From the NCBI GenBank assembly GCA_036845725.1, contig DAIUDK010000001.1, forward strand, positions 22,522 to 86,521: a DNA stretch of 64,000 nucleotides, written 5' to 3'. The notes beneath the pieces are model-generated. The model saw only the letters and a list, made by a program, of their open reading frames with translations, had not been told where the DNA came from and ran no database searches. The DNA comes from Chloroflexota bacterium (GTDB lineage Bacteria; Chloroflexota; Anaerolineae; B4-G1; SLSP01). Made by a program: the position numbers and the translations under genes. This document shows, piece after piece, positions 6,729 through 64,000 of the stretch; the first letter of the stretch is position 1, and each line of letters begins with the position of its first letter.

Positions 6729-6804
6729 AGCTTCCTCAGTGGTTGTTACTCGTTGCTCAATACTGGTTACTGGGTGCTGGGATAATTCAGCTTTCCCCAC
6801 CATT

Positions 6805-7947: not shown

Positions 7948-8095
7948 CCGTTCGGTTTTCGCACTCGCACGGGATTGTGATTGCACGCCGGTAATTCTAT
8001 CCCGAAAGGCAGGCTTTGCAACATTTGATTCGTAATCCAATAGAACTGGCCTGTGTGAGAATAAAAGTTATAATTCTTTCGGAGGATAAACTCAA

Positions 8096-8482: not shown

Positions 8483-8494
8483 TGCGAAACACCT

Positions 8495-11032: not shown

Positions 11033-11099
11033 AAAAACTCCAAAGAGAATGAGCAAATCAGTGAATCAGCAAGACCCCTTACTCCATACTCCTTACTTC

Positions 11100-11807: not shown

Positions 11808-11828
11808 CGACCACCAGCCCGCCCGTCT

Positions 11829-36865: not shown

Positions 36866-36908
36866 TAAATCGGCCTCCTTTTAATTTGTCACCCACCCGC
36901 TGCGAAAA

Positions 36909-47117: not shown

Positions 47118-47501
47118 ATGCACTGGATCACCTCATTGGCTTGTCTTGGCGTTTTTACGCTAACTGCTGTAGGGCGTACGCTGGAAAGCGGCGTTTGGGA
47201 AGGCCACGTGACCTTTGGCCGGGGAGGCAGCAGCTTCAACCCATGCGGATCGAAAGAGACCTGGTGGGTGAAAAGCAAAGGATTCAGCAAAACCGCCGAG
47301 AAGCTCCAGGAGGACTATAACAGCATCGCGCAAAAACCCTACGAGCCGGTCTACGTCCGTGTAAGCGGCGACGTCAGCCGCAAAGGGCAGTACGGGCGAC
47401 TCGGCTCATACCAACGCGTGCTCTATATTGAAGAAGTGCTCGAAATCCGCCCCAAGAAAGATGATGATTGCAAGTCGGTAAAACGAATGAGCGAAATCTA
47501 A
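47118..47501 (+). CDS. Hypothetical small secreted protein / lipoprotein
   Basis: Signal peptide MHWITSLACLGVFTLTA. SD AAGGAG. No recognisable motif. Confidence 0.45.
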   Translation: MHWITSLACLGVFTLTAVGRTLESGVWEGHVTFGRGGSSFNPCGSKETWWVKSKGFSKTAEKLQEDYNSIAQKPYEPVYVRVSGDVSRKGQYGRLGSYQRVLYIEEVLEIRPKKDDDCKSVKRMSEI

Positions 47502-49942
47502 GGCAAAAACACAGTCCCTGCTGATTTCAGAACCAATGGCAGATACAGCCTGTACGACGTCACAGTCACAATCCACTGGATACTTCCCTCGCTGCAGGAA
47601 TTCGTGGCCGTCATGATGACGGTGTACGGGAGTGTTATGGTCGCTACCGGGAAGGTATACGTAACGACCTCGCCATAAACGAGCGGACTTCTATCCCCGA
47701 AATCCCACGCGAAATCAACCGGCGGCGTGCCCTCCGCCACCGTGCCGGTAAATGTAGCCGTCTGCCCAACAGCCAGATAGGACGGCGTGTAACTGAAAAA
47801 CGGCTCGACCACCGGAAAACACTCTGCGGCAATCGCGACAGTCGTCAAATCGCTGTAGGCCGAAACGCCTGTCCCAGATGCCGTCACCCGCACCGTATCC
47901 GTGAACCCCGTAAAAGCATTCCAGGGGACCGTGACCAGTGTTGTGACCGGTGTGCTCGCTTGCGGCGCTAATGTCACCTGCGTGGGAGTCAGCGTCGTCG
48001 CCAACGCCGCACCGGAGAACGCCAGACTATAGTCATCGGTGATATTGCCGATGTTGGTCAATGTGAGCGTGTACACCAGCGTTTTTCCCGCGTCGCCGTT
48101 AGCACTTATTTCCGGCGGCCAAAGCTCCAGGCCGTACACCGCATCCGCCGTCGTGCGGAGCGTGGCGCGCGCGCTGCGGGAGGGGTCGCCTGCCGACGTC
48201 GCCGTCACCGTGACCCTGTCCGATGCCCCGGACAATGCATCTGTGGGGATGGTGACCGTCACAGGCAGTGGCGCGGTCGCCCCGGCAGACAACGGCCCGA
48301 TTCGGGTCGGTGCGGTCGTCTGCCAGCCGGCACTGGTCAATGTGACGGTGAAGTTGTCCGCCGTCGTCCCGGTATTCGTGACGCGAAAGGCAACACTCAC
48401 CGCCTGGCCCGGCGCGCCGTGCTGTTCAACCGTCGCCGGCGCAATGGCGACGCCGTATTCGACCGAGGCGAGCGCCGCATCCACTGCCGATTTGATGTCC
48501 AGCCGCCCGTAACCGTAGACGTTGTTGGGCCAGCCGCTGCTGCTACACGCGGTCGAGTTGATGTGGAACGCATTGTCATTCAGCAGTTGCTCCGTTGCAT
48601 CGATCTGGTTCTTAAGCACCGGAACCGCCGACCACAACAGCGCCACGGCCCCGGCGACGTGCGGCGCGGCCATCGAGGTGCCATTCTTGGCGCCGTAGCC
48701 GCCGTTGGGAATACACGAGCGGACACTCGTCCCTGGCGCGGCAAGGTCGGGCTTGCGGCGGTTGCTGCCGTCCACCATCACCGGGCCGCGACTGCTCGAT
48801 GACCAGATCGTATCTGTGCCGGTGCTCAACGCCCCCACCGTGTACGCGGCGGCGTAAATCGCGGGAGGATCGTTCACCGTCGAACAATTCGAACCGGCGT
48901 TCCCTGCCGAGACGACGGTCATAATGCCCGCCGCGCGCTGCGCTTCCATCGCGTCTTGCAGCGTGCTCCACGAGCAGCCTTCGCCGCTAGGGCACGTCCA
49001 CGAGTTGTTGGTCACGTCGGGCGCTTTGCTCGGATCGCCCTGGGCAGACGTCCCACCCACCGGATACGGCGCGAGGAAGAACTCGAAACATTCCAGATAT
49101 GTGGCCGGTGTCCCGTACCCCACGTTCATATTGCGACAGCCGATCCACTGCGCGCCGGGCGCCATCCCGATCTGGTTCATCCCACCGTCATCGCCGACAG
49201 CCGTGCCCATCGTGTGCGTGCCGTGGCCGTAGTCGTCGCATGGCACAAACGAGTCTGCGCCGCACGAGCCGCCGCCGCTGTGAATGGCATCGTGCCAGTT
49301 GTAATCGTGGTTGGCCGTTGTCCCGTTCCAGCCGCGATAGTGTGGCTTCAGTGCCGGATGCGTCCAGTCGTAGCCCGTATCCTGCCCACCAACGACCACG
49401 CCCTGCCCGGTAAAGTCCATCGCCCAGACTTCCGGTGCGCGCACGTAGGTGATGTTCAGTTCGATAGCGGTAGGGGCGGCGGCGAGCAGCGCGTCGAGCG
49501 GGCGCGCGGGCTGCGGCAGCACGTTCTGGATGCGCGGGTTGCCCTCGATGCGCGCCACGTCGGGCCGTGCAGCCAACGCTCGCACCAGGTCGGCATCTCC
49601 TTTCACCCAGATCAGGTTGACGATGTAGTAGGCGCGATGTTCCACGCCGCGCGCGGCAAGCCACTTGAGCAGCGGCCTTTGCGAGGTCTGTGCGGTGCGC
49701 CACAGCGTCTCGTAGACGTAACGGCCCTTTTCCGCTTTCATTTGCAGTCGTGCCGCGCCGCTGAGATCCGCCTGCGCCGCCAGCACGACGAGGAACTCGG
49801 CCTCTGCGCCGCCGGCGGTGTGCGCGAGAACCCACGGGGCGATTTTATCGAGAGCCGGAGCAGCGCGCAGTGCGGTGGAAGGCGCACCGAACAGGCCGAG
49901 CAACAGCACAACAAACAAAACGACGCGGTAGAGTCGATTCAT
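47498..49942 (-). CDS. S8-family subtilisin-like serine peptidase with C-terminal Ig-like/PKD domains and a conserved YLPLV C-terminal tail
   Basis: Catalytic triad context GGQDTGYDWTHPAL (Asp), HGTHTMGTAVGDDG (His) and GTSMAAPHVAGAVALLWSA (Ser). Signal peptide from MNRLYRVVLFVV. PKD signature WDFGD. Ends ...SYRLYLPLVLKSAGTVFLP. Confidence 0.85.
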   Translation of the reverse strand: MNRLYRVVLFVVLLLGLFGAPSTALRAAPALDKIAPWVLAHTAGGAEAEFLVVLAAQADLSGAARLQMKAEKGRYVYETLWRTAQTSQRPLLKWLAARGVEHRAYYIVNLIWVKGDADLVRALAARPDVARIEGNPRIQNVLPQPARPLDALLAAAPTAIELNITYVRAPEVWAMDFTGQGVVVGGQDTGYDWTHPALKPHYRGWNGTTANHDYNWHDAIHSGGGSCGADSFVPCDDYGHGTHTMGTAVGDDGGMNQIGMAPGAQWIGCRNMNVGYGTPATYLECFEFFLAPYPVGGTSAQGDPSKAPDVTNNSWTCPSGEGCSWSTLQDAMEAQRAAGIMTVVSAGNAGSNCSTVNDPPAIYAAAYTVGALSTGTDTIWSSSSRGPVMVDGSNRRKPDLAAPGTSVRSCIPNGGYGAKNGTSMAAPHVAGAVALLWSAVPVLKNQIDATEQLLNDNAFHINSTACSSSGWPNNVYGYGRLDIKSAVDAALASVEYGVAIAPATVEQHGAPGQAVSVAFRVTNTGTTADNFTVTLTSAGWQTTAPTRIGPLSAGATAPLPVTVTIPTDALSGASDRVTVTATSAGDPSRSARATLRTTADAVYGLELWPPEISANGDAGKTLVYTLTLTNIGNITDDYSLAFSGAALATTLTPTQVTLAPQASTPVTTLVTVPWNAFTGFTDTVRVTASGTGVSAYSDLTTVAIAAECFPVVEPFFSYTPSYLAVGQTATFTGTVAEGTPPVDFAWDFGDRSPLVYGEVVTYTFPVATITLPYTVIMTATNSCSEGSIQWIVTVTSYRLYLPLVLKSAGTVFLP

Positions 49943-50066
49943 AGTTTCACCCTCAAAAAGTTTCATGTCAACGCTCAAGGCAGGTCACAATCCACGGTCT
50001 CCGCAGCCCCCCCCTTTAATCCCCCCCTCTAAGGGGAAACTAAAGGGGGGAATCAGTCCTTGCACA

Positions 50067-53000
50067 CTATTGGCCGCGCAAAATCACGGGCAAATAGACG
50101 TAGACAGTCTTTTGCTCAAGCGCGGTCGTCAGAACAGCTTGCGCCTGCACGGTTGGCGATTCAAGAATAGTGGCGGTTACGGTCAATATGTGCGGTGCTG
50201 CATCCAAGAGTGTTCCTGACTCAGGGATCGTCACTGTGACCGTCACGGGGGCAATGCCACCAACTGGCAAAGAAACCTGCGTTGGAACGATCTGCACCGG
50301 CCAGATACTCGACGGCGTAGTTAAGGCAACCGTTATAGGCAACGTCCCGACGTTGGTCACGGTCAGGTAATGAGACGCGGTTGCCCCAGGCAGCCCTGAC
50401 CGGTATGATACCGGCGGCGACAGTTCCAGGTCATAGGGAGCGGCCACCTCCGATGTTAGCACCAGCTCCGCCGGTGCCGTTATGCCCGGCCAGGAGGCAG
50501 TGACGCGGCTGGCGAACACGTTCAGATCGGTCCCGGTCGGGATCAGCACCGTCCAGGTGAAGGTCTGCACGGCCTCAGAATCCGACGCCAGATCACGCCA
50601 GATCAACGTTCCCAGCGCAACACTCGTGGCTGCCGGCGAATGAGACAATATCGTCACCGACGAGGGTAATGTGAGGGTCAAAACGCCATCTGTCATCGGC
50701 AACAGGCTATCGTTGAGCACCGTCAGAGTATAGGTGAGGGGAATACCAGGCCACACGCGAGCCGGCTGGGGTGTCAGCGCCAGCTCCAGGCGGGCCGGGG
50801 GCTGCGACAGACCCAACCATGCCAACCCGTCACGCAGGATAGTGGTCCGTTGCGCGCTATCGGCAACACCCTCCAGGCCAAACGCAAGGTAGATGAGACG
50901 GTGCGCGCCGTCGTCCACGGCCAACCCTGCCGCGCCGGTGGTATAGGTGAAGACCGGCGTCGCCGCCACATTATAAGGGGCAATCACGTCTGGGCTGGTT
51001 TGGTTGTCGGCCCCGCTTCCACCGGTCAACGTGACGTTCAGTCCGCTGTAGAACGAGAGGCCGACGGTTTCTGTCTCCCCGGCATTGTCCTGAATGAACG
51101 CAGCGTGCAAAACGTCGCGGAAGAAAGCGCCGTTGTCGTTCTTGATGTCCATCCCGATGTTCTGCCCGGTCACGAAGAGCCGCCCGCCGGCGTCGAGGTA
51201 AGTGAGCAGGGCGGTCTGCTCAGCGCGATTCAGGCTGTTGAGCGCATCGTCGCCGGTGAACCAGAACACACCCGTATAAGCCGCCAGCGTCTGGGGCGAC
51301 AACGGACCTTGCGTTGCTATCGTCCACGTCGCGTACGGAATTCTCAGTGCATCCAACGCCGGCAGGAGATAAGTCTCGTAGGACGCGCCGGCGTCGTCAT
51401 CCACGACCAGGAGCGCTGGCTTGGGATGCAGGCGCAAGGTGTGCGTCACCCACGCCCCCTCGGTGATGGTGACAGAGTAGGAACGCGGCCAATGCTCTGC
51501 CGCCGTCGCCGTGAACGTGTACACGTCAACCGGCAGCTCCAATGTCAGGGTCGGCGCTGCAGTCCAGGCCGTCCCCAATCCTTCCAGGGCGACGGTCGCC
51601 GTCAACGGTTGCGCCGATCCCAACTCGGCTACTATCAGAGAAAGCGTTCCCCAGGGCAACCGTTCCAGAGCAAAATCCTGCACAGAGGTCTCGCCGATAG
51701 CCATAGAAACGGTCGCCATGCTGCTTGCGTAGCCCAGCAGCGAAGCGGTCACGGTATACGTTCCGGCGTACAAAGGCAGGGTGTACTGTCCGGTGACATC
51801 GGTCTGGGTGACGTACTGGGCCGTGCCGCTGTCTGCTGTAACCTGCGCGCCGGATAGCGGAGTCGCCGTTCCCGAGACAACGACGGTACCGGTCAAAGCG
51901 CTGTCGTCCACCAACTGCACGAAGGCGGCAGAGATCGGGCCCCAGAAGCCATCGGCGTCCCGGCCTCGCACATAGACGAGATGTCGCCCGCGCGCCATGC
52001 CGGTCGTATCGATCTGAACCTGGGCGGCCTCTTCCGTTTCGTTGAAAGCGCCATCCAGCGCGAACATCGGAATGGGCGTACCGCCATCCCAGGGAGGTGT
52101 CCCCACGTAGATCTCCGCCGCCACAACTGCCTGGCCGGTATTCTTGCTATCGGCGTCATTGAGCGTCGCCTGCACGGTGATGGGCTGCCCAATCAACACC
52201 GCATCCGGCATCGCTGTGACGGTTTGGACGTGAGGGCCAAAGGACGTGAGATAGGGCGTCCGCGCGACTTTGGCGGCATAGAGGAGCGTGTCAACGTTCG
52301 GTTGGATCAAGGCATCGTAGCGCGAACAAGGTGGGTAAAATTCGTCGCTGCTCGAACCAATCTCAAAGGTGTAGGCCGCGACGCCCAATTCGCCGTAAGC
52401 CCAGTCATCGGTAGCGCCGCTAGTAGGATATAACGCGCTGGATTGCTGTGGGGTGAATCCGTTGAAGGACGCCATCCGCCGGCCGAGCATCTGCAATTGC
52501 GTGCCGTTCGGCGCGGGGGTGGAGGTATCTCCCCAAGGCCAAAGCACCAGATTACTGTAACTGTGCAGGGTGATGAAAACGCCGGTTGCATCGTCCGGCG
52601 CAGGGTCGGTGTCGTTGGGGCCGCGTTGATCGGGAAAAAGGGTAGCGACGAAGCTTTCCAATCGAATCGTTTCAATTTCAGAAGCCGCCGACGGCCCGCG
52701 ATAAGTTTCATCACAGGGGTTGGTGCTGGTGCCCGGCCCACCCCAATGGAAGCTGGAATTGCGGTTGAGGTCCACACCGTAGTCAGTGGAACTGCACGAT
52801 CCGTAAGGGTGGGTATTTTTGCGCCAGTAGGCCCAGGGTTGGCCCGGCTCGTTTTTTACGTGGCCGTCGGGATTGGCGCTGGTGAGAACGTAGATCAAGT
52901 GCTCGTCCAGCAACCAGGTCACGTCCGGGTCAACGTTGTAGTTCTCCAGCAAATACTGCATGAAGACCAACGCCGTCTCCGGGGTGATCAATTCGCGTCC

Positions 53001-53492
53001 GTGGATGTTCGCCACTAAGAAGAAAGTGGGTTTGTTGCTCGTCCCGGTCGCCTCGTTGGTCAAGCGCATCACCCGCAAAGGACGGCCCTCGTAACTCTGG
53101 CCGATGCTGAACAGTTGCGTAAAGTCGGGGTATGCTGCTGCCCACTGATCCAACTGCGCGTAGATCTCGTCCACCGTGCGGTAACACGGGAAACCGGGAA
53201 TAGTATCCGGCAGCGCGAGGTTCAGAGGCGATTCAGTGAAAGCAAAGCCAGCCGAGGTCAGCCACGCGTCGTCGGTGGTCGAGGTGTAGGCGACCACATA
53301 GCCGGTTTCCGGGTTCTGCGCGTCGCGGTGAACTTCCCACACATCCAGACGCGCCGTCAACGCCGCCAGTTCCTCCGCCGAAGCAAAGGTAATATGCACG
53401 ATACGGTCGCCGTCAGGGCTGTTGGCTTCGACAGGCAGGGCCGATATCAGGGTTATTCCTAATACAATGAGAAAAAGCCAGCATTTGCGCAT
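50067..53492 (-). CDS. M14-family zinc carboxypeptidase with CarboxypepD_reg-like and Ig-like domains, and a conserved C-terminal YLPVILR tail
   Basis: ...VANIHGRELITPE... carries the HxxE zinc ligands; ...ITLHSYS..., ...TFEIG... Signal peptide MRKCWLFLIVLGITLISALPVEA. SD GGAGGA. Ends ...KTVYVYLPVILRGQ. Confidence 0.8.
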   Translation of the reverse strand: MRKCWLFLIVLGITLISALPVEANSPDGDRIVHITFASAEELAALTARLDVWEVHRDAQNPETGYVVAYTSTTDDAWLTSAGFAFTESPLNLALPDTIPGFPCYRTVDEIYAQLDQWAAAYPDFTQLFSIGQSYEGRPLRVMRLTNEATGTSNKPTFFLVANIHGRELITPETALVFMQYLLENYNVDPDVTWLLDEHLIYVLTSANPDGHVKNEPGQPWAYWRKNTHPYGSCSSTDYGVDLNRNSSFHWGGPGTSTNPCDETYRGPSAASEIETIRLESFVATLFPDQRGPNDTDPAPDDATGVFITLHSYSNLVLWPWGDTSTPAPNGTQLQMLGRRMASFNGFTPQQSSALYPTSGATDDWAYGELGVAAYTFEIGSSSDEFYPPCSRYDALIQPNVDTLLYAAKVARTPYLTSFGPHVQTVTAMPDAVLIGQPITVQATLNDADSKNTGQAVVAAEIYVGTPPWDGGTPIPMFALDGAFNETEEAAQVQIDTTGMARGRHLVYVRGRDADGFWGPISAAFVQLVDDSALTGTVVVSGTATPLSGAQVTADSGTAQYVTQTDVTGQYTLPLYAGTYTVTASLLGYASSMATVSMAIGETSVQDFALERLPWGTLSLIVAELGSAQPLTATVALEGLGTAWTAAPTLTLELPVDVYTFTATAAEHWPRSYSVTITEGAWVTHTLRLHPKPALLVVDDDAGASYETYLLPALDALRIPYATWTIATQGPLSPQTLAAYTGVFWFTGDDALNSLNRAEQTALLTYLDAGGRLFVTGQNIGMDIKNDNGAFFRDVLHAAFIQDNAGETETVGLSFYSGLNVTLTGGSGADNQTSPDVIAPYNVAATPVFTYTTGAAGLAVDDGAHRLIYLAFGLEGVADSAQRTTILRDGLAWLGLSQPPARLELALTPQPARVWPGIPLTYTLTVLNDSLLPMTDGVLTLTLPSSVTILSHSPAATSVALGTLIWRDLASDSEAVQTFTWTVLIPTGTDLNVFASRVTASWPGITAPAELVLTSEVAAPYDLELSPPVSYRSGLPGATASHYLTVTNVGTLPITVALTTPSSIWPVQIVPTQVSLPVGGIAPVTVTVTIPESGTLLDAAPHILTVTATILESPTVQAQAVLTTALEQKTVYVYLPVILRGQ

Positions 53493-53562
53493 GGGATCCT
53501 CCAGAAAAGTGATGGGTAATGGGTAATGAGTTGGATAATGGGTCTTGAGTTTTGGGTTTTGC

Positions 53563-53597
53563 TGTGCGCCGCCTCCTTGTGGTGGAGGCGGCGCACA
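53563..53597 (-). terminator. Perfect 14-bp GC hairpin in the 118-bp spacer between the two giant-protein genes (no U-tract)
   Basis: tgtgcgccgcctcc-ttgtggt-ggaggcggcgcaca. Confidence 0.35.
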
Positions 53598-53610
53598 GGT
53601 TGAGAGCACG

Positions 53611-56600
53611 TTAGTCAGAAGCTCTTATGATTAACGGCAGGTATACCTGATACAGATGAACCGCAACGACTTGTTCTGCTACATCCCAGCCACAGGCGTT
53701 GGTCGCCGTCATCGCCACGGTGTAGGGGAAAATCGCGGTCTCGGTGGAGAAGGTGTGCGTGACGACAGCGCCAGTCGCCGTACCGCCATCACCAAAATCC
53801 CAGGTATAGACGATGGGCGGCGTGCCCGCCGTCACCGTGCCGGTGAACGTCGCCGTCTCACCGCCGAAGGGTTGTGCGGGTGTAAAAGTGAACGCCGCAC
53901 CGGATACGGAGATGCAGTCGAGCGTTGTTGTCAACAAGCTGGTCGTGGAAACCCCCGTACCCGCAGCGACGACACGGGCTGTATCGAGTGAGGCGGCCGT
54001 AGCAACCGGCACCGCGACCGTCGCCGTCACCGTGAGCGTCTGGCCGGGAGCCAGAGAAGCCATCTGTGAATTGAGTGTCGTCGACCAGGCAGCGTCCTCG
54101 ACGGAGAGTGTATAGGTATCGGCGGCATTGCCCATGTTCGACAGGGTCAATGTGTAGACCACCGTTTCGCCAGGGTCTGCATCCATCGACGCCGTCTGCG
54201 GGGAGAGCGCCACACCGTACACCGCGTTCGCGGTCGTGGTCACGGTTGCTGTCGCGCGCACGGCGGCATTGGCCTGTGACATCGCCGCCAACGTCGTCGC
54301 GGCGGCATCGCCAGCCAGGGCGCTCGCCGGGATTGTCACCGTCACCGGGACGGCGATCCCAACACCAACCTCCAGCGCGCCCGTTGTCGCCGTGACATCG
54401 ACCGGCCATACGCTTGTTGGGTACAGCGCGAACGTGTCCACGCAATTGCCGGTGTTCGTCACCCACAACGTGGTTTGCAGCACCGCAGCGGGATCGCCAG
54501 TAAGTTGCAATGGGTTCACGACGGCCTGCACGGCATATACGGCCCGGGCAGACGTCGTAGCCGTCGCTGAGACAAAACGGGAGGGACTTCCCTGCGATGC
54601 GACAGTTACCGTCAGTGTGTCCAACGCATCACACAAAGCGGCGTTGGGCACGGTCACGGTCACAGTGACCGGGGCGCTTTCTCCTGCAGCCAGCGGGCCA
54701 ACCATGGGTGTAGCGGTCGCGATCCAGTCGTCGCCGGAGAGCGTTACCGTGTAGGTGTCCGTCTCCAACCCTTCATTCGTCAGCATGAAGGTGTATGTCA
54801 CTTGCGCACCGGGCAAGCCACTTTGTGCCGCAGCAGAGGGCGACAACGCCACGGCGTAGGGTTGTACCACCGTCAGCGTGATGGGAACGCTCAACTCACC
54901 ATAGGGTGTACTGTTAGCAACGCGCAGATGAGCAGGGTAGACACCCGCGTCCATACCGCTCGCGTCGAAGTGTAGGGTTACGGCCTGCTCGCCGCCGATC
55001 CCAACCGTGCCCGTCACCGGATCGCTGGTCAGCCACGCCACCTCCTGCCAGGCGCAAACGCCGGTCTCGCCGGAAATGGCCTGGATGACCTGCCCCGTGA
55101 CCTGATTGACCGCCCACAGATTGCCGTCGCAATCCAGTGAGAGGCCGGCCTGCTCGAAGCTGCCCAGGCCATCAATGTCGAAGCCGCCAATGATGGTATA
55201 GCCGGCCGCCGTGTCGATGACGTACACGTCGCGCCCTATCGCAGCGTTGGACATCACAAACAAGTGGCGGGTCGCGGGGTTGTAAGCCAGACCGGCGATG
55301 TTCAGCTTTAGATCGTAGGAGTCCAACAAGCGCCCGGTCGCATCGAAGTGGTAGACAATTTGATCGTTCCACGAGCCGCTGTAGAAGGTGTCGGTCGTGG
55401 GATCGTAGGCCAGACCGCGCTCGGATACGCCGAAGGGCGGGCAAAGCGCGCGCCCGGTTGCCGCCGCCGTCCCCGGCGCGGTTGCTGGATCCAGTTCGTA
55501 CACGCAGCCATCTTCACCCACGTTGATCTGCCAGAGATTGCCGGTGATGGGGTTGTAGGCAATGTCGGCGGCAAACAGTGCAACCCACGGTGAGGTCGGC
55601 AGGGATGCGCCGGTGGGCGTACCGTCGGGTTCAAAAGCGACGTTGCGATCTTCGCCGCCGCCGAGACGGGTATCACTTAGCCAAAGCAGACCGGCAGCCG
55701 TGTCATAGGCGACGCCCCATGGCGAAACCAGGCCACTATCCCAGGTCTGGATGACGGTCCCTGCATCCAACAACGGCACGTCGGGCGGATCGTATTGGCG
55801 GACAGTAGTGGCATTGAGGTCGTGCAAGTGCTTGGGTGAGACGCGGCGCGTCATCCCGGCAAACGGCCCGGTGACGGTAATCGGCGTGAACGGCGCGTTG
55901 ATCTCCTGCAAGGTGAAACTGGCGCTAAACCCGCCGCTGTTGCTGAGCGTGATCGCGCGCGTGGTCATCGTATCGGCAGTCATCGTCAATGTAAGCGCAT
56001 TCGGCGCGACTGCAAGCTGTCCCGCATCGAGAGCGATGTCGTGGGCAACCGCTACACCGGCAGTCACAGTCGCCGTGACGACGCCAGGCGCGTAGCCGGT
56101 CGCCGTCGCGGTGACGACGTGTGTCCCGGCAGGCGCGAAGAGCGTGTAGAAGGCCCCCACGCCGGGTGCATTGTGCGTGCTGGCCTGAGCGGTGTAGCCC
56201 GCATCGTCGCGCAACACCGCAGCGACCGCTGCTCCGGTGTTGGCATCGGTCACTTCACCGACGATTAAGCCGCCCGCTGTGGGAGCACACGTCGAGGTCC
56301 CGACGAACACGTCATCCACTTGCCACCACCATTCGTAGTTGGCGTTGTAGTAGTGGAAGCGCACGCGCACGTCAGATTTCCCGACCGCCAGGGCGGAAAG
56401 GTTCACGCGCGCGGTTTTGGGGCCGCGGTCGTTGGCGCCGCTGCGCTGCCAAACGTTGGTCCAGGTCGTTCCCCCGTTCACACTCACGTCCACGTCGGCA
56501 ATTTCATTCTCGCCATAACTGTACCAACGAAAGTCATACTTGAATTCGAGGATGACCGCCGTCTGGGAAGAGAAATCCATAACGGGCGAGTATAAGACGG

Positions 56601-59007
56601 CGTCCACATTTTTCGCGCCCGCGTGGTCGCTATCGATGAGAGCAAACGATCCCGTCCCGCCAGTGCGGTTACCAAGCGACTTCGAGTCATCGAAGCGCCA
56701 CACCACGCCGGCCCCGGCGTTATCCACCAGTGACCAACCGGCAGGCAGAGCGCCACCATCGAAGGATTCTGTCGTCCCAACACGGCTGAGACTATAACCC
56801 GGCGCACGGCAGGTGACCGTATCCGCATGCAAAGCCACATTGCGCGTCACATTGCCCATCAACGGGCCGAGGGAAAAACTGGCGGGCAGGTAGCCGGAGA
56901 CCCAGGCTTCGACCTCCAGCGTGTAGGTGACTCCAGCCGCCAGCGTGAGGGTGTACGCGCCGCTGAGCGGATCGGTCCACACGACGTCGTTAGGCGCGGG
57001 CGGGTTGTAGGGCACACCCTGCACGCGGATGCGCGCGTAGAGCGGCCAACCGGTGAGCGCGTCGGTGACGGTCCCAGAAACGACGTAGGTCGGCGCGGGG
57101 GTGAGGGACAGGTTGAGTGTGGTGGTCGCGTTGCTGGTGACTTCGACGCCGGTTTGCGTGCGCGGGAAATAGCCATAAGCGCTGGCGGTGACGGTGTAAG
57201 TCTCCGGTTCAAGCAACAACACGTAGGAACCATTGCCGGCGCTGGTGGTGGCTTCCGTTCCGGATGGGCCGACAGCTTCGACGCGCGCGCCGCTCACGGG
57301 TGAAGATGTGGCGGCATCGGCGACAACACCGCGCAGCGTGCCGGGTTCGGCAGCCGTGCAGCCCGGAAAGCGAAAGGAGCCGATACGCGTCGACCACGAC
57401 GCGTATCCTGTCGTCGCCATGTACTCCTGCGTATACCAGAAGGTGCAATCGTCCACCGGGTCGATGCCCATCATACTGTAATCGCCCCAGCGATTGTAGG
57501 AACTACTCTGGTAACCGCTACCGGCAACTAACGAGACTTCATCCTGGGGCAACGTCCCCAGGGGATCGTTCGCCAGCCGCCCGGCGTACCGCACAGAGGG
57601 ATAAACACTGCTGCTGGAGACGCTGTAGCCCAGGGCCATGTTGCCCTCTCCATCCATCGCCACACTGCCCATCCAGCGGTGATGGGAATCCGGGGCGTAC
57701 GTGCCTTGCTGGTAAATGACGGGTGAACCACCGGGGTCGCGGACTTCGTACCAGCGCACGCCGGCGATGCCACTTCCGGCGTTGACCGTGTGGTTGACCA
57801 CGAGCGATTCGTGCGTGCCGAAGTTGCGGTAGGCCAGCCGGTACATCAGCCGGTCGCCGATGGCATCCAGCCGCACCGACGTGCCCGGCTGAGGGATGCA
57901 ATTGCGCGTGCTAGAACAGATCGGCGTCCACTCGGCCACGGGGATGACAAAGTTAGGCTGTCCGTTAAGGCCAAACGTCGTATTGGCAGGGTTGGCCCAA
58001 TCGACGTGGAATTCCCAGATCCGCATGGCGTCGTTCGGCCTGATCCAGGAACCATCATCCACTTCCATAAAGTAGTTGGGCGCACCCGCCGGCGGCAGCG
58101 TAGCGCCATCGAGGTCGGAGGGCAACATCCCGCCGAAATTATCGTTGACGTTATAAAGGTCAAAGAATTGAAAGGATGCCGTGGGGTCGCCGGTGAGCAT
58201 CTTATCACGCTCGAAGACGAAGACGCCCGCCCCACCCCAGTACTCGCTGTTGGTGAACTGGTTGACCGTCATATAGTACCCATCGGGCCAGACACCGAAC
58301 TTGGGGTAGTCGTTCATTTTGGTGGCGCTAACCTGAAAAGCATAACGATACCAGGCGCCGGTGGGGTCGGCGGTCTGGGAGACGGCGATACATTGGTAGT
58401 ACGGGCCATCGACGGAGAACTGAGTCATCAGCCAGCGATTGGCGATGGGATCAAAGAGGGTAATCGGGTCACCGTCGTTGGTGTTCGCACAAACACCGCC
58501 GAAGCCCTGCCAGATTGTGTTGCCGGTGACAGGGCCGTAGACCAGCGTAGGCGTGTTGGTCACGTCCCAGACGGCAAAGGAGAGGTTGACCCATTGCACA
58601 TAGTATTTCGTCCCGGTAGCCGGATCGTAGCCGATGTCGCCCTGGGTGTCAGGCGGATGCACGCCGTTGATGTTATCCAGGCCATCGAAGCTGGTGAGCG
58701 GCGATGGCATCGCCATGGGACCGGTTACGCTTTGCAGGACGCGGTCCGTCGTGTAAAACGCATCCGACTGGACAGCTTTAGGAAGGCGGAACGAAAACGC
58801 AGTTTCGTCTCCCCCTATCGCCTGCTGGCCGCTGTCTATTGATAGCGCGCGTAACGCCGGAGAGACGTCCATGCGCTCGGCGTACCCCACGGTGGGCGTC
58901 AGCGGCGCGGGCGGGGCGGCGAAGGCCAGGCGCGGGGGTATGGCCAGCGCGCCGAAAAACAAAACGAGCAACAATGATAAACAAAGATTCTTTTTCACGT
59001 TTGTCAC
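53611..59007 (-). CDS. Giant (about 1800 aa) secreted multidomain protein: N-terminal unknown domain, CarboxypepD_reg-like domains, MAM/jelly-roll-like domain, beta-propeller region, CARDB/Ig-like repeats, PKD domain, and a conserved C-terminal YLPLIIR tail
   Basis: Signal peptide ...KKNLCLSLLLVLFFGALAIPPRLAFA. GTG start at 59007 with GAGGGAG 5 nt upstream. PKD signature WDFGDGG. Ends ...HLYQVYLPLIIRASD. Confidence 0.6.
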   Translation of the reverse strand: MTNVKKNLCLSLLLVLFFGALAIPPRLAFAAPPAPLTPTVGYAERMDVSPALRALSIDSGQQAIGGDETAFSFRLPKAVQSDAFYTTDRVLQSVTGPMAMPSPLTSFDGLDNINGVHPPDTQGDIGYDPATGTKYYVQWVNLSFAVWDVTNTPTLVYGPVTGNTIWQGFGGVCANTNDGDPITLFDPIANRWLMTQFSVDGPYYQCIAVSQTADPTGAWYRYAFQVSATKMNDYPKFGVWPDGYYMTVNQFTNSEYWGGAGVFVFERDKMLTGDPTASFQFFDLYNVNDNFGGMLPSDLDGATLPPAGAPNYFMEVDDGSWIRPNDAMRIWEFHVDWANPANTTFGLNGQPNFVIPVAEWTPICSSTRNCIPQPGTSVRLDAIGDRLMYRLAYRNFGTHESLVVNHTVNAGSGIAGVRWYEVRDPGGSPVIYQQGTYAPDSHHRWMGSVAMDGEGNMALGYSVSSSSVYPSVRYAGRLANDPLGTLPQDEVSLVAGSGYQSSSYNRWGDYSMMGIDPVDDCTFWYTQEYMATTGYASWSTRIGSFRFPGCTAAEPGTLRGVVADAATSSPVSGARVEAVGPSGTEATTSAGNGSYVLLLEPETYTVTASAYGYFPRTQTGVEVTSNATTTLNLSLTPAPTYVVSGTVTDALTGWPLYARIRVQGVPYNPPAPNDVVWTDPLSGAYTLTLAAGVTYTLEVEAWVSGYLPASFSLGPLMGNVTRNVALHADTVTCRAPGYSLSRVGTTESFDGGALPAGWSLVDNAGAGVVWRFDDSKSLGNRTGGTGSFALIDSDHAGAKNVDAVLYSPVMDFSSQTAVILEFKYDFRWYSYGENEIADVDVSVNGGTTWTNVWQRSGANDRGPKTARVNLSALAVGKSDVRVRFHYYNANYEWWWQVDDVFVGTSTCAPTAGGLIVGEVTDANTGAAVAAVLRDDAGYTAQASTHNAPGVGAFYTLFAPAGTHVVTATATGYAPGVVTATVTAGVAVAHDIALDAGQLAVAPNALTLTMTADTMTTRAITLSNSGGFSASFTLQEINAPFTPITVTGPFAGMTRRVSPKHLHDLNATTVRQYDPPDVPLLDAGTVIQTWDSGLVSPWGVAYDTAAGLLWLSDTRLGGGEDRNVAFEPDGTPTGASLPTSPWVALFAADIAYNPITGNLWQINVGEDGCVYELDPATAPGTAAATGRALCPPFGVSERGLAYDPTTDTFYSGSWNDQIVYHFDATGRLLDSYDLKLNIAGLAYNPATRHLFVMSNAAIGRDVYVIDTAAGYTIIGGFDIDGLGSFEQAGLSLDCDGNLWAVNQVTGQVIQAISGETGVCAWQEVAWLTSDPVTGTVGIGGEQAVTLHFDASGMDAGVYPAHLRVANSTPYGELSVPITLTVVQPYAVALSPSAAAQSGLPGAQVTYTFMLTNEGLETDTYTVTLSGDDWIATATPMVGPLAAGESAPVTVTVTVPNAALCDALDTLTVTVASQGSPSRFVSATATTSARAVYAVQAVVNPLQLTGDPAAVLQTTLWVTNTGNCVDTFALYPTSVWPVDVTATTGALEVGVGIAVPVTVTIPASALAGDAAATTLAAMSQANAAVRATATVTTTANAVYGVALSPQTASMDADPGETVVYTLTLSNMGNAADTYTLSVEDAAWSTTLNSQMASLAPGQTLTVTATVAVPVATAASLDTARVVAAGTGVSTTSLLTTTLDCISVSGAAFTFTPAQPFGGETATFTGTVTAGTPPIVYTWDFGDGGTATGAVVTHTFSTETAIFPYTVAMTATNACGWDVAEQVVAVHLYQVYLPLIIRASD

Positions 59008-59132
59008 ATTTTCTCCCTCAGTCTGAATACCAACCACAGCGTACTATACCATTGAGCGATGTGAAGTCCAATGCAGTGCGAGCCAGAGTCTTTTCATTCT
59101 CCTGGTGCAACGTATCTCCTCTCCCACAAAGT

Positions 59133-59163
59133 GAGGGCCACCAGGGTAGCCCTGGTGGCCCTC
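59133..59163 (-). terminator. Perfect 14-bp GC hairpin 3' of the 59197 giant-protein gene (no U-tract)
   Basis: gagggccaccaggg-tag-ccctggtggccctc. Confidence 0.35.
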
Positions 59164-59196
59164 TTGAGAAAGCAACGTGTTAGAGCAGGTTACCTG

Positions 59197-62100
59197 CTAC
59201 TGCGCGTTGCGCATCACGAGCGGCAGATAGATGGTGTGCATCACCCGCCCAACTCGCACCACAGCCTCAGCGGTAAACGGCAGATCGTTCGCCGTTACCG
59301 TGACGGTGTTCGTGATCAACGTACCCAACTCCACATCATCGTTCACGCGAACGACGAAGCTGAAGGTAACGGTTGCGCCTGCTTCGAGCGACCCGGCCCA
59401 CGTCACCGCGTTGCCCGGCGGATCTGCCACAGTTGCGCCGGAGACGCTGCCCAACACGTAGGTCGTGTTGGCGGGAACGGGATCGGACGCCGTTAGATCG
59501 AGTGGCATATCGTAGCTGTTGGTGAAGACCACGGTGTAGGTGATCAGCTCGCCGGGCAGCACGAAGTCCGCCGGATCGGCAGTCTTGACGACATCCACCC
59601 GGACCGCCGGTTCATCGAGCACAGTCAGCCGCACGGGGCGGACGAACAGACGTTCCACCGCCGCGTTCGTGTGCGCGATTTCCAGGACGGTTGAGTAGAC
59701 GTCGCCGGCGACCAGGCCGGTCGAGTCGAACGTCAACACCACCGGCACACTGCTATCCGCCGGGACGACGCCCGTCTTGGGCGCCACCGACAGCCACAGA
59801 CTGGAGCCGGAGATGTCGTCGTAGGCGAAGTCGCCCGCACCAACGTTGTGGATGGTGAGAGTGCGCGTGAGGGTGCGTTCCTTGGGCAGTGTCTCGTCGA
59901 AGCTGGTCGGCGTGACGCTGACGCAAGGCAGATCGATACGCAGGCTCACGTTGCGCGGCAGCATCCCCGTTTGCGCCGTTCCATTCGCCGTGACCGGTAC
60001 GTAGCCAGGATGCGAAACGGTTATGGTGTAAGCATCACCGGTCGCGAGCCAGGCCGCGTAGGTGCCATCAGCGCCCGTGGTAAGTATGAAGCTGTCACCC
60101 GAGCTGGTCGAGACGGCGACTTGCACGCCCTCCAGCGTTTCGCTGACCTCGTCACACTGCGACCAGGCGGTGACAACACCTTCGAGTCTCACCTGCGCCG
60201 CCTGCAGCACGGTCATCGTCACAGGGATAACGAATAGCGCTTGCTGCGGATCATTGGTCTCTACCCACAGTTCGGCCAGATAGTCGCCCGGTAAGGTGAC
60301 TTCAGGCACGGACGCGTCGAGCGTGACCACGACCGTCGCATCGTCGTGAGCGGCGATGTCGCCTTCGTCCACATCCACCGACAACCACGTGACTTGATCG
60401 GACCGGCAATTCGTCTCCTCGCCAGGGTAAGCGAAGCAGATCGCCAGTTCGTCGGCCAGCGCCGGCCCGTAGTTGAGGCCGACGATGCCGAGCGCGTCTT
60501 CGATGCCGGTGCTCGCGTCAGGTGCATCCACCGTCTCGTACTGCATCAGGATGCTGCCGGAGCGGAAGAGAATGGCCTGGAAGGTTCCTGCCGGAGCGCC
60601 GCCAGCGTGCGTGAAGTCGTCGTACTGCACGATGAAGCAGGCGTCCACGGCAGTCCCTGCCGGGTTGTACGGACACTGCGGGAAGTTCTGAACGTAGACG
60701 GTTCCCGGAAGCAGATCGTCCCAGGCGACGGCGATGAGGTTGTTGGGCAGCGTCGGGCTAGGCAGCGCGTCGGGGCTGAGGTCGGTGGAGCCGGCGCCGA
60801 AGGAGAGGAAGCCGTTGCTGTTGACGAAGACGGAGTCGTAGAGATTGGGATCGACGTCGCTATCGCCGTAGAACTTGAAGTCGAAGCCGATGTCCACTTC
60901 AACGGAGTCATTGTCGCCGAGCGTTACCGGCGTGCCGATGCCGGAGATGTCCACGAAGCCGTAGGCCGGGCCGACGCCCGCGCTGTTGGAGTCGGCGAAC
61001 TCATAGCCGAAGCCATCCGGGCCGCCGGCGGCCAACGGGCCGAGTATGTCGAAGCCCAGGCTGCGCTCGTCGATCTCGAACGTGCCGGTGAAGGCGCCCA
61101 GGTTCGCCAGGTTGAGGTCCACCGTAGTGACGGCGCCCATCTCCACAGAGACGGCCAGCGCGTCCGGCGCGACCGTGATGCACGGCTGCATGAAGAGCAG
61201 GTCAGCGTTCTGCGTGGTCACTTCACCGCCGGCGATCTCGACACCGGTGAACACCTGCGCGTCGTAACCGGCCTCATAGGAAATAGTAACGGTGAACGGG
61301 CTATACATCCCGTCGATCCAGATACCGTAGATACCGGCGGCATCGGTTTCGACGGCCCAGGTGTCGGTGGTCACGGTGCTTTCGACGAAGATGACGGCGC
61401 CTTCCAGCGGCATGGTCATCGCGTTACAGTAGCCAAGACCCTGCACCAGGCCGCCGATCTTGCCCCACGTAGCGGGCGGTTCGACGGTCATGGTGACGGG
61501 CATGACGATTTCGTTGCTGCCTTTGAAGGTCAACGTGGCGTAGTAATCGCCAGGTTGTGTCACTTCCGGCACGCTCGCGTCGAAGGTGAGGGTGACGGGG
61601 GCGGTGGCGTCAGGCGCGACCGTTCCAGAGGTCGGATCTTCGTCCAGCCACGGGACGCCGCCCGCTGCCAGGAAGTCCATAGCCCGCTCAACGATGGCCG
61701 TTTCTACCGGATCGCCTACGGCGCTGCCGCCGGCGTAGTAGAAGTCCCAAGCCAGATAGATGGCCTTGTAGCCCAGACGCTCCACCTTAATGCCCGCGCA
61801 GTTGAGGCTAGGCGCGTCGAAGATACAGGTTCCTTCGGCGCCCACGGTAAAGTCATCGGGGTACGGGTCGGCGCTGATGTCAGGATCGATGCCGGCCATG
61901 ATATCCAGGCCGGTCAACTGTCCATCCGATCCACTGTCGCTCACGTAGGTGGACTGGAGGTAGGTCTGGTAGAAGGTGGTAGGGGCAGTACGATTGCTGT
62001 ACCCCAGATCGTTGTCGGCGATCAGGAACGAGCCGCCAGCATCCAGGTAGGCCAAGGCCTTAGCCCAACTGTCGCCAGAATAACCACCGGCGTAGAAGAC

Positions 62101-64000
62101 GGCCTGGTATTCCAGCAGATCGGCCAGCGCCATCGCCTGGAAGGCATCTCGGGTTACGCGCAGATAGCTGTAGCCCAGGTTGGTCAGCGCCGTCTCCATA
62201 GCCGTCGCTGGGGTGGTGTCATACGCGACGACCAGGACATCCTCGCCGGCCGTCGGCGCCATCACCTGGAAGCCACCCGATTTCTCCCGCACCTCCCAGT
62301 CAAGATCCGCCGCGCCTGTGTTAGACACGGTGATCGGCAGCGTGGTGCTCACGCCCATCGCCACGGTAACGTGCGCGTCGGCGGGTGTCACGCTCATGCA
62401 CGGCGCTTCGGAGCTAAGATCGAAGTCCTGTATTGTGGTCATGCCAGAGATAACTTCGACATCGGCCACAAACTCCGTCACATAGCCGTCCGCGTCTACC
62501 GTGATGGTGACAGGGCTGTGCGCCTCATCCAGCCAGAGGGCGTAAGCGCCGTCAGCGTCGGTCAGTAACGTCCAGGTCTGGGTCGCACTTTGGATCGTGA
62601 CTTCCGCGCCTTCCAACGCCTCAGCGGTCGCCGGGTCATCGCACGGGCCAAGGCCCATGACGGTGCCGGTGATCTGACCGTAGGTTTCGGGGAGCGTGAC
62701 GTGCATGGTCACGGGGATGCTGAATCCGTCCCACACGGGGTCGCTGTTGTTGACGGTCAGGACGCCGGCATAGGTGCCGGGCTGCGTCACTTCAGGCACG
62801 CCCGCGTCGAAGGTGATGTCGGCTACACCACTCGTCGCAGACGGCACCGCGCCCGATTCTGGATCTTCGAAGAGCCAGGGGATATCAGCTGCCTCAAGCA
62901 ATTGGATGGACAGCTCGGTAGCCCCATCATAGTTCCAACCAGACCCGGGCACTGTCGCAGCCCACACTGAGCCGGTCAAACCGTTCACCGGATCCAGATC
63001 GCCAGTCTCCCAGAAGAAATCGTCTGTGCCAGTCCCGGTGTTGTTGTAGATCTCGATCCAGTAGTTTCCGGGCGCCAGAATCACTGGGGAAGCCAGGGTC
63101 AACGTATGCATCCACTCATGCACGCCGAACAGCACTACGCCGGTTTGAACGCGCTCGTAATCCACATTGGTCTCGACGTAGATATTCGCGCCCGGTAAGC
63201 CGGCATCATCAGAGTGGAAGATGACCGTAAGGTTATCCGGATCGATGGGTGTGTCGGTAGAGTAATAGCCGGTCCAGAAGACGATCTGACCGATAGCTTT
63301 CCCCTCACTCAGAGTAAAGTTCTCAGCTATGGCCTGCGCGCCAGTAGAACAGTTATCACAACCGGCATCGCTGAAGAGGCCATTATCCTGGTTCGGGATC
63401 TGGTCCAGCAGGGTCGACGCCGAAGTCGCCAGCGGTGCAGACGCGTGTCCGACCACCTCAGCCTCGGAATATTGCAACAGGCTATGCGCCTGTCCATCCG
63501 AAGCAGCCGGCGGTTGATACGGCGTTAACGTTCGCAACGTCGGGACAAAGCCGGCGGTCACCTCCGAGAAGGCGAAGTCCAGCGCGCCCGCGCCGTCGTT
63601 GGTCATCGTCAGCGGCAGGGTCGTGCTCATCCCCATCGCCACGGTGACTTCCATAGCGGACGGTTCGATGCTGGTCACGCACGGACCGAGCCAGGTCAGG
63701 CTGAAGTCCTGCGCGACTGCGCCAGAAGCGGGTACGGCCACCACCGCGGAAGCGCCAACGTGATCAGCAGCCGCAACGGTGACGGTGTAAGTCCCGTTCA
63801 GGAGCCAGTAGCTATACGCGCCAGCCGCATCTGTGGTCAGGGTGACGACAGCCGTACCGCCGGCCTCCCAGATGACGACTTCTGCGCCTTCCAGCGCAGC
63901 GGTCGTCACATCACAGTGACCCAGGCTGGAGACGACGCCGGCCACCTGCCCCCAGGAAGCGGGCGGCGTGACGGTCATCGTCACCGGCAGGATGATGGGC
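59197..64000 (-). CDS. Giant secreted multidomain protein (over 1590 aa; N-terminus outside the window) with a five-fold repeated CarboxypepD_reg-like plus 'SVPEVTQPGDY' module, and a conserved C-terminal YLPLVMR tail
   Basis: Open to the window end. Repeats of WG.I.G.V.GLG.CD....LEGA.V.I......TDA.G.Y..WL..G.YT.T and DASVPEVTQPG.Y.A.L.......IPVTMTV. Ends ...VMHTIYLPLVMRNAQ. Confidence 0.6.
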   Translation of the reverse strand, partial: PIILPVTMTVTPPASWGQVAGVVSSLGHCDVTTAALEGAEVVIWEAGGTAVVTLTTDAAGAYSYWLLNGTYTVTVAAADHVGASAVVAVPASGAVAQDFSLTWLGPCVTSIEPSAMEVTVAMGMSTTLPLTMTNDGAGALDFAFSEVTAGFVPTLRTLTPYQPPAASDGQAHSLLQYSEAEVVGHASAPLATSASTLLDQIPNQDNGLFSDAGCDNCSTGAQAIAENFTLSEGKAIGQIVFWTGYYSTDTPIDPDNLTVIFHSDDAGLPGANIYVETNVDYERVQTGVVLFGVHEWMHTLTLASPVILAPGNYWIEIYNNTGTGTDDFFWETGDLDPVNGLTGSVWAATVPGSGWNYDGATELSIQLLEAADIPWLFEDPESGAVPSATSGVADITFDAGVPEVTQPGTYAGVLTVNNSDPVWDGFSIPVTMHVTLPETYGQITGTVMGLGPCDDPATAEALEGAEVTIQSATQTWTLLTDADGAYALWLDEAHSPVTITVDADGYVTEFVADVEVISGMTTIQDFDLSSEAPCMSVTPADAHVTVAMGVSTTLPITVSNTGAADLDWEVREKSGGFQVMAPTAGEDVLVVAYDTTPATAMETALTNLGYSYLRVTRDAFQAMALADLLEYQAVFYAGGYSGDSWAKALAYLDAGGSFLIADNDLGYSNRTAPTTFYQTYLQSTYVSDSGSDGQLTGLDIMAGIDPDISADPYPDDFTVGAEGTCIFDAPSLNCAGIKVERLGYKAIYLAWDFYYAGGSAVGDPVETAIVERAMDFLAAGGVPWLDEDPTSGTVAPDATAPVTLTFDASVPEVTQPGDYYATLTFKGSNEIVMPVTMTVEPPATWGKIGGLVQGLGYCNAMTMPLEGAVIFVESTVTTDTWAVETDAAGIYGIWIDGMYSPFTVTISYEAGYDAQVFTGVEIAGGEVTTQNADLLFMQPCITVAPDALAVSVEMGAVTTVDLNLANLGAFTGTFEIDERSLGFDILGPLAAGGPDGFGYEFADSNSAGVGPAYGFVDISGIGTPVTLGDNDSVEVDIGFDFKFYGDSDVDPNLYDSVFVNSNGFLSFGAGSTDLSPDALPSPTLPNNLIAVAWDDLLPGTVYVQNFPQCPYNPAGTAVDACFIVQYDDFTHAGGAPAGTFQAILFRSGSILMQYETVDAPDASTGIEDALGIVGLNYGPALADELAICFAYPGEETNCRSDQVTWLSVDVDEGDIAAHDDATVVVTLDASVPEVTLPGDYLAELWVETNDPQQALFVIPVTMTVLQAAQVRLEGVVTAWSQCDEVSETLEGVQVAVSTSSGDSFILTTGADGTYAAWLATGDAYTITVSHPGYVPVTANGTAQTGMLPRNVSLRIDLPCVSVTPTSFDETLPKERTLTRTLTIHNVGAGDFAYDDISGSSLWLSVAPKTGVVPADSSVPVVLTFDSTGLVAGDVYSTVLEIAHTNAAVERLFVRPVRLTVLDEPAVRVDVVKTADPADFVLPGELITYTVVFTNSYDMPLDLTASDPVPANTTYVLGSVSGATVADPPGNAVTWAGSLEAGATVTFSFVVRVNDDVELGTLITNTVTVTANDLPFTAEAVVRVGRVMHTIYLPLVMRNAQ

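Follow-up and report, generated by a model that had tools for sequence, protein, structure and literature searches.

Four consecutive genes in a 64,000-nucleotide stretch of DNA from a Chloroflexota bacterium (NCBI GenBank assembly GCA_036845725.1, contig DAIUDK010000001.1; the whole stretch is referred to below as the window) encode large exported proteins that end in the same short motif. It is near certain that these tails are YLP boxes, a motif for which NCBIfam holds two models, NF050076 (sort_motif_YLP) and NF053834 (ultrashort_CTERM), both named 'YLP-box putative sorting motif-containing protein'. On comparative grounds, the box is probably an ultrashort sorting or retention tag that retains exported proteins on the surface of the cell or filament and is read by an envelope component whose gene is not linked to its targets. 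Since the motif is known to NCBI curators, the four proteins are added members of an already catalogued kind. What is new here, as far as we found, is the positional flexibility of the box, the existence of hybrids in which it is combined with a transmembrane (TM) segment, its substitution by other anchors (of the lipobox, dockerin, type IX secretion system (T9SS), LAXTG, IPTL and GlyGly types) and the absence of a linked partner.

The four open reading frames (ORFs) are arranged head to tail along the minus strand (Table 1), each with a C-terminal [VIL]-Y-L-P-[LV]-[VI]-[LIM]-[RK] located 2-8 residues before the stop codon. The S8 subtilase ends in YRLYLPLVLKSAGTVFLP, the M14 carboxypeptidase in VYVYLPVILRGQ, the 1798-aa multidomain protein in YQVYLPLIIRASD and the fourth protein in HTIYLPLVMRNAQ, each followed directly by a stop codon. 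A search of the six-frame translation of all 64 kb with the pattern Y[LIVM]P[LIVM]3[RK] returned exactly four matches, all of them near the stops of these ORFs, which bears out the claim of a common tail made in the original prediction, and none of the approximately 45 other genes in the window has a YLP-type tail. Synonymous codon differences among the four boxes (TAT/TAC, CTG/TTG, CCA/CCC/CCG, CGC/AGA/AAA) indicate that the box is conserved at the protein level, with selection acting on the peptide. In the four proteins, 2, 3, 3 and 8 residues follow the K or R of the box, with neither a TM segment nor a basic cluster beyond it, as had been noted originally. N-terminal signal peptides are present on the three complete proteins, as judged by a heuristic reading of the sequence rather than by a dedicated predictor, and the N-terminus of the fourth protein falls outside the window.

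Table 1. Coordinates of the YLP-box genes, their features and selected neighbours in the window. Bit scores are those of isolated tail peptides.
Feature	Coordinates	Strand	Description	NF050076	NF053834
S8 subtilase gene	47498..49942	(-)	814 aa, secreted: signal peptide, Peptidase_S8, two Ig-like domains, PKD, YLP box		
S8 tail	47525..47545	(-)	YLP box YLPLVLK, then 8 residues (SAGTVFLP) and stop	17.8 bits	14.5 bits
S8 signal peptide	49856..49942	(-)	MNRLYRVVLFVVLLLGLFGAPSTALRAAP, by reading of the sequence		
M14 carboxypeptidase gene	50067..53492	(-)	1141 aa, secreted: signal peptide, Peptidase_M14, CarboxypepD_reg, alpha/beta DUF4350-like domain, DUF11/Ig-like domains, YLP box		
M14 tail	50076..50096	(-)	YLP box YLPVILR, then GQ and stop	11.7 bits (below 15)	11.2 bits (at or above cutoff of 10)
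M14 alpha/beta 'LLVVDDD...YLDAGG' domain	50853-51437	(-)	M14 residues 686-880; weak DUF4350/DUF4159 matches (E 0.01-0.03)		
M14 signal peptide	53418..53492	(-)	MRKCWLFLIVLGITLISALPVEANS		
1798-aa multidomain protein gene	53611..59007	(-)	secreted: signal peptide, 560 aa without family match, CarboxypepD_reg, MAM, Ig-like domains, PKD, YLP box		
1798-aa protein tail	53623..53643	(-)	YLP box YLPLIIR, then ASD and stop	18.7 bits	17.6 bits
1798-aa protein, N-terminal 560 aa	57328-59007	(-)	no match in Pfam, no PDB sequence match		
1798-aa protein signal peptide	58915..59007	(-)	VTNVKKNLCLSLLLVLFFGALAIPPRLAFAA, GTG start		
Fourth gene	59197..64000	(-)	runs off the window; C-terminal 1600 aa: CarboxypepD_reg repeats, BACON/Ig-like domains, DUF11/DUF7927, YLP box		
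Fourth-protein tail	59209..59229	(-)	YLP box YLPLVMR, then NAQ and stop	17.4 bits	16.9 bits
Hairpin after M14 gene	50007..50052	(-)	about 20 bp, C/G-rich, no U tract		
Hairpin after 1798-aa gene	53562..53598	(-)	15 bp, GC, no U tract		
Hairpin after fourth gene	59133..59163	(-)	14 bp, GC, no U tract		
NlpE_C-like gene	47118-47501	(+)	127-aa OB-domain protein; convergent with S8 gene, 4-nt overlap at S8 stop		
Predicted lipoprotein	734-2047	(+)	lipobox LLAAC		
Predicted lipoprotein	35543-36880	(-)	GH8 enzyme, lipobox LWAGC		

NF050076 covers 11 positions with a cutoff of 15 bits, and NF053834 covers 10 positions with a cutoff of 10 bits. When the tails were scored as isolated peptides of 20-32 aa, all four were at or above the NF053834 cutoff and three were at or above that of NF050076 (Table 1). 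They align to model positions 1-11 (NF050076) or 1-10 (NF053834), and the end of the model corresponds to K or R. In scans of the full-length proteins, a cutoff was reached only by the 1798-aa protein (NF053834, 11.0 bits). The two models are narrow, matching 12 of 150 M14-homologue tails (with E up to 0.5) versus 33 recovered by regular expression. The window tails are like the NCBIfam YLP box in motif, in their extreme C-terminal position and in phylum, with no essential difference. The earlier statement that the tail matches no known sorting signal is thus not supported, since two NCBIfam models fit, though no paper on its mechanism was found: a literature search returned none on the YLP motif, and a preprint on orphan signals (Haft, 2023; 10.1101/2023.06.07.544157) does not mention it.

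To follow the motif across genomes, we searched for DNA encoding YLPLVLR in one genome per GTDB species, which gave at least 120 matches; the counts that follow refer to the 120 matches listed. Chloroflexota account for 68 of these (Anaerolineae, Anaerolineales, Thermoflexia/Thermoflexus, Caldilineales and 'Chloroflexia'), and in 54 of the 68 the stop codon of a long ORF follows after 0-8 residues. In other phyla, only 2 of the 52 matches listed were C-terminal, one of them an edge artefact, and the remainder are internal conserved sites such as one in an aminotransferase. C-terminal YLPLVLR is therefore essentially confined to Chloroflexota among the matches listed. A control on viral contigs with a looser pattern gave 1 C-terminal match in 120. 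In the Chloroflexota loci, 68 of 1624 ORFs of at least 100 aa end in a box, compared with 1 of 1784 and 2 of 2420 in the controls. Taken as a whole, the YLP box is specific to filamentous Chloroflexota, that is Anaerolineae (Thermoflexales and Caldilineales included) and Chloroflexia such as Herpetosiphon. Box genes are frequently found in tandem in the Chloroflexota loci, as they are in the window. A signal peptide was read, by the same heuristic, on 37 carriers in other loci, and complete carriers almost always have one.

The homologues of the window proteins show the same positional bias. The nearest named relatives are metagenome-assembled genomes (MAGs) of Anaerolineae/Chloroflexota (76-78% identity for P0005 and P0006, 73-74% for L159), and a homologue search with the fourth protein found relatives of up to 78% identity, the closest of which, P0005 and P0007, end in YLPLVMRNAQ and YLPLVMRGN. 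Among 120 homologues of the fourth protein (224,539 residues) there are 35 strict boxes, 33 of which lie within 12 residues of the end, and at least 68 of the 120 have a YLP-like box at the end. In the Chloroflexota MAG L159, orthologues of the M14 (74% identical) and S8 (73% identical) proteins occur in the gene order of the window; both retain YLPLVL while their flanks diverge, and the M14 orthologue ends in RIYLPLVLRNR. Orthologues keep the box even where the adjoining sequence changes. The exact S8 protein is present on at least 24 metagenome contigs. On metagenome contigs carrying the identical S8 gene, the fourth gene encodes a 4175-aa protein with an N-terminal S8 domain of its own.

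The consensus of the box is [VIL]-[YF]-L-P-[LIV]-[IVL]-x-[KR]-(N/G/P)-x0-3. The Leu-Pro pair is invariant in all 67 carriers. In 72 boxes, the number of residues after the basic residue is 0 (n=12), 1 (n=6), 2 (n=31), 3 (n=14) or 4-8 (n=9), so that 63 have between 0 and 3; position -1 is V, I or L in 68, position +1 is mostly N or G (N in 28), and K-P endings are frequent. The last 330 aa of the 67 carriers match 65 Pfam families, including beta-helix, DUF11, PKD, CARDB, fn3, GH5, GH123, nuclease and SBP_bac_5, and the NCBIfam choice-of-anchor Q domain is found in 15 of the 67, with J, T and D types also present. In the four window proteins, Pfam and NCBIfam scans identify PKD, Ig-like or DUF11 as the last domain before the box. 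A query consisting of PKD plus tail yielded 17 candidates, and in an alignment of 16 PKD-plus-box ends the spacer between the last PKD strand and the box varies from 5 to 10 residues with indels. In an AlphaFold2 model of the PKD domain and tail of the 1798-aa protein, the PKD domain is confident, its last strand comprises residues 96-103, and the box is coil with block-mean predicted local distance difference test (pLDDT) values of 78-90. In a model of a solute-binding protein (SBP), pLDDT for the box falls below 50. We conclude that the box is an exposed, unstructured peptide appended after the last domain, and that it marks Sec-exported proteins of any fold, nearly always at a distance of approximately 10 residues or less from the C-terminus. 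A recurrent class of small secreted proteins (about 110 aa; L129, L151:1769-2134, L176 and L244) has GGGY...GGFWGG repeats and a YLP box at the end.

These results bear on the proposal that the tail is an artefact, either arising by chance from composition or being no more than the final beta-strand of an Ig-like domain. Homologous PKD modules do precede two of the four tails, but the six-frame, viral, other-phyla, control-ORF and homologue-position counts refute the notion, among them the C-terminal bias in the matches listed (54/68 in Chloroflexota versus 2/52 in other phyla). Moreover, the box follows beta-helix, SBP, glycosidase, nuclease and P/T-rich linker contexts (65 Pfam families in all) at a variable spacing and is modelled as coil. 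We regard an artefact as hardly credible.

The box is not restricted to the extreme C-terminus. Among the matches listed, 13 in Chloroflexota are not C-terminal, excluding the conserved aminotransferase site. In L241 and L245 (L245:1974-4061) the box is located 10-20 residues after the signal peptide, and in L245 it is the sole box of the protein. In L158 (two boxes), L165, L140, L218, L209 and P0098 the box is inter-domain, with P/T-rich linkers beside it or a single additional CARDB or jelly-roll domain after it. L131 is also listed among the loci with a box away from the C-terminus.

Homologues that lack the box are informative with regard to its function, since comparison of their ends reveals that known anchoring or docking devices take its place in other lineages. 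For the fourth protein, P0085 ends in a T9SS domain (Pfam PF18962) and P0083 does so by resemblance of its tail, P0106 (Halioglobus) has an IPTL-CTERM-like tail, P0124 (Amycolatopsis, actinobacterial) ends in LAWTG followed by a TM segment and RRRR, and P0015 in GG followed by a TM segment and a basic tail. Two further homologues, P0019 and P0045, are hybrids that continue from a YLP-like box (TYMPLVR and VYLPFVIRGS) into a hydrophobic helix and then an RRRR or RKRR tail. In the 150 best representatives of the M14 homologues, the regular expression finds the box in 33, inspection by eye suggests approximately 60 box-like tails, and TM-plus-basic tails occur in 4, while P0250, P0255, P0271, P0353 and P0383 have a C-terminal Dockerin_1 domain above the Pfam cutoff at the site occupied by the box in their relatives. 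A DppA-like clade of SBP_bac_5 proteins (L229:1767-3437 (-), L249:1053-2711; P0125-P0153) provides a comparison at the N-terminus: in 28 of 30 close homologues, a signal peptide without a convincing lipobox is combined with a terminal box, and among 87 distant homologues the box is absent (0/87), a lipobox is present in 30 and 4 are permease fusions. Neither of the two predicted lipoproteins of the window has a YLP box, and within this small sample an exported protein has one or the other, lipobox or YLP box, never both. A role in retention is suggested by the alternative anchors, the SBP_bac_5 clade and the box-less lipoproteins of the window.

How would the box compare with established devices of this kind? 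Like the LPXTG/LAXTG signals, it is a short Leu-Pro motif on Sec-exported surface proteins, and LAWTG occupies the box site in P0124. In contrast to them, it has no T-G, TM helix or basic tail and may be N-terminal or internal; the LPXTG model TIGR01167 did not match the window proteins and no sortase gene was seen in the window. The tripartite CTERM signals (PEP-CTERM/exosortase, GlyGly-CTERM/rhombosortase, MYXO-CTERM/myxosortase, IPTL-CTERM and PGF-CTERM/archaeosortase) are likewise lineage-specific, occur many times per genome on unrelated exoproteins and are served by an enzyme whose gene need not be linked. Tails of this type stand in for the box in P0015, P0106, P0321, P0341 and P0354 and follow it in P0019 and P0045. 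They require a membrane-spanning helix and a basic cluster, however, whereas the YLP box measures 7-10 residues in all; no tripartite CTERM model matched the four proteins and no cognate enzyme was found in the window. The C-terminal domain of T9SS substrates similarly acts as a sorting element at the end of giant multidomain proteases and adhesins but, unlike the box, is a beta-sandwich of 70-100 aa from diderm Bacteroidota, and the corresponding domain (Por_Secre_tail) was not encountered in Pfam and NCBIfam scans of the four proteins. This agrees with the distinction drawn originally between the tail and LPXTG, CTERM and T9SS signals. Dockerin-cohesin pairs resemble the box as a C-terminal add-on that mediates non-covalent docking of secreted hydrolases to a surface scaffold, although the dockerin is a folded Ca-binding domain of approximately 60 aa with a known receptor and the box a linear peptide; Pfam found no dockerin (PF00404) in the four window proteins. 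Finally, the lipobox (Lgt/Lsp) is an alternative route to retention and is mutually exclusive with the YLP box in the SBP_bac_5 family, differing from it in being N-terminal and in its Cys-dependent lipid modification.

The likeness to LPXTG, PEP-CTERM and MYXO-CTERM raises the alternative that the box is a covalent sorting signal, with an unlinked sortase-like transpeptidase or peptidase cleaving in or beside it and attaching the protein to a wall polymer or lipid. The invariant Leu-Pro of the 67 carriers, the alternation of the box with LAXTG-, GlyGly-, IPTL- and MYXO-type signals among homologues and the classical tripartite layout of the two hybrids, box first and then TM segment and basic tail, are in line with such a signal. 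More than 95% of boxes, however, lack a membrane-retaining segment, and cutting at an inter-domain box, or at one situated 10-20 residues past the signal peptide, would release nothing of use or would break the protein in two. In addition, the basic residue is the very last one in 12 of the 72 boxes, with no leaving group after it. No candidate enzyme is found in the window or as a recurrent neighbour in the 67 loci; the enzyme for MYXO-CTERM is never encoded next to its targets (10.1101/2023.06.07.544157), and because that protease is likewise unlinked, the negative result for neighbours is still compatible with an enzyme. Overall, we consider a covalent signal unlikely, though it is the most serious competitor to a docking tag.

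A second possibility is that the box acts as a self-sufficient sticky tail, a hydrophobic heptapeptide plus cation that adheres directly to the membrane interface or to an anionic polymer of the wall, without the help of a dedicated partner protein. Its composition (an aromatic residue, L-P, three aliphatics and K or R), its occurrence at either terminus or within linkers, and the absence of a partner gene from the 67 loci are as such a tail would have them. The strict features of the motif, namely the invariant Leu-Pro, V, I or L at -1 in 68 of 72 boxes and a basic residue at a fixed distance, go beyond generic stickiness, and seven residues are too short for a bilayer, contributing by our own estimate approximately 1-2 kcal/mol on interfacial hydrophobicity scales. 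Restriction to a single lineage also suggests a co-evolving reader. We judge the sticky tail improbable, more so than covalent sorting.

We therefore return to a tag read by a dedicated envelope component, for which the following scheme may be envisaged. Export and cleavage of the signal peptide would leave the box exposed; a component encoded elsewhere in the genome would recognise it and thereby retain the protein on the surface; and docking would be non-covalent, by beta-strand addition to a receptor of the wall, sheath or S-layer or to one bound to the membrane. The S8 and M14 proteins and the two giant multidomain proteins would be the cargo and would form a set of proteolytic and adhesive proteins displayed at the surface. 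How the box acts is the weakest step of this scheme. We favour non-covalent docking of a linear peptide over sortase-like cleavage because the box comes without a TM segment, can end at its basic residue and also occurs in N-terminal or inter-domain positions. The original prediction had proposed a shared processing, quality-control or surface-attachment step, with a dedicated partner encoded elsewhere as one option; the comparative evidence makes a common sorting or retention step with such a partner the most probable explanation, while the partner itself was not found in the window or in the 67 loci.

Several observations weigh against a surface tag of this kind. Clustering of 347 ORFs from the 67 Chloroflexota loci revealed no non-YLP family in more than two loci; no partner was found, and no S8, M14 or other neighbour recurs beside box genes in these loci. 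The gene contexts of the hybrids P0019 and P0045 and of one SBP gene were uninformative, and the hybrids themselves may mean that the box alone is not always the anchor. Box-bearing SBP genes are orphans with no adjoining permease genes, so the need of these proteins for tethering is only assumed, and extracellular hydrolases do not strictly require an anchor. In the AlphaFold2 model of the PKD domain, the tail is of intermediate confidence (78-90) and may pack to some extent on the domain. Full-length scores against NF050076 are below cutoff for two proteins (11.5 bits for the 1798-aa protein and 11.6 bits for another), with none for the other two.

The neighbour analysis also speaks to the earlier suggestion that the S8 or M14 protease encoded alongside cuts the tail as a processing or quality-control tag. 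In its favour, the four genes sit close together on a single strand, and the combination of M14 with CarboxypepD_reg resembles carboxypeptidases that trim basic C-termini, a comparison that draws partly on family knowledge. Against this, both proteases themselves bear the box, no protease recurs beside box genes in the 67 loci, the box follows more than 60 unrelated families, and many tails end at the basic residue, the 12 boxes of 72 that do so exactly having no residue to cleave off. Processing by the co-encoded proteases is accordingly very unlikely, and we have set this part of the original prediction aside.

Other candidate roles were also considered. An OMP-type (outer membrane protein) beta-signal was rejected, as the tails do not finish on an aromatic residue and these bacteria are considered monoderm. 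We rejected a PDZ-type C-terminal ligand since the distance to the carboxylate is not fixed and the box can be N-terminal, and an Asn-dependent ligase site given that N stands at +1 in only 28 of 72 tails and that K-P ends are many. A nucleic-acid-level element was rejected in view of the codon variation. A translational arrest peptide was rejected, with nothing in its favour and a position that varies.

With respect to the window proteins themselves, their description as unrelated in architecture was overstated: over its last 313 aa the S8 protein shares 42% identity with the end of the 1798-aa protein, and Ig-like or CarboxypepD_reg modules are common to all four. The LLVVDDD domain, said to be shared by two of the proteins, is clear only in the M14 protein, and its counterpart in the fourth protein (residues 649-751) is a weak match (E 7e-7). 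The first 560 residues of the 1798-aa protein may form a catalytic or binding domain of a kind not yet described. The tight packing on one strand and the GC-rich hairpins without U tracts were correctly described, with hairpins of 14-20 bp present in all three spacers between the four genes; they were not called by a terminator scan because they lack a U tract, and may act in termination, processing or mRNA stability. In L159, a small gene similar to the NlpE_C-like gene of the window adjoins the S8 orthologue. Positions 1-12000 of the window resemble an envelope or exopolysaccharide region, with a glycosyltransferase, an 856-aa DUF2298 membrane protein (Pfam match) and large membrane proteins without a Pfam match, as well as genes that we take, without a family scan, to be Wzz-like and tyrosine-kinase-like. 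Pfam scans of the membrane proteins encoded in the window identified no sortase, rhomboid, CPBP or exosortase-type gene.

Digesters, activated sludge, hot springs and sediments harbour abundant monoderm Chloroflexota, and the YLP box appears to be the commonest surface tag of these bacteria. A largely position-independent motif of 7-10 residues that has no membrane segment and is read by an envelope receptor or enzyme could represent a mechanistically new class of sorting signal and the main display device of filamentous monoderm Chloroflexota, carried in each genome by dozens of exoproteins, among them proteases, glycosidases, adhesins and binding proteins; this wider proposal is offered tentatively and is clearly less secure than the retention role itself. 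In the window, the tag would label a surface-displayed proteolytic and adhesive battery made up of two S8 proteases, one M14 protease and one protein without an assigned function. The reader of the box, once found, would explain the surface biology of a phylum-level group, would improve localisation calls for thousands of MAG proteins and might provide a very small tag for surface display.

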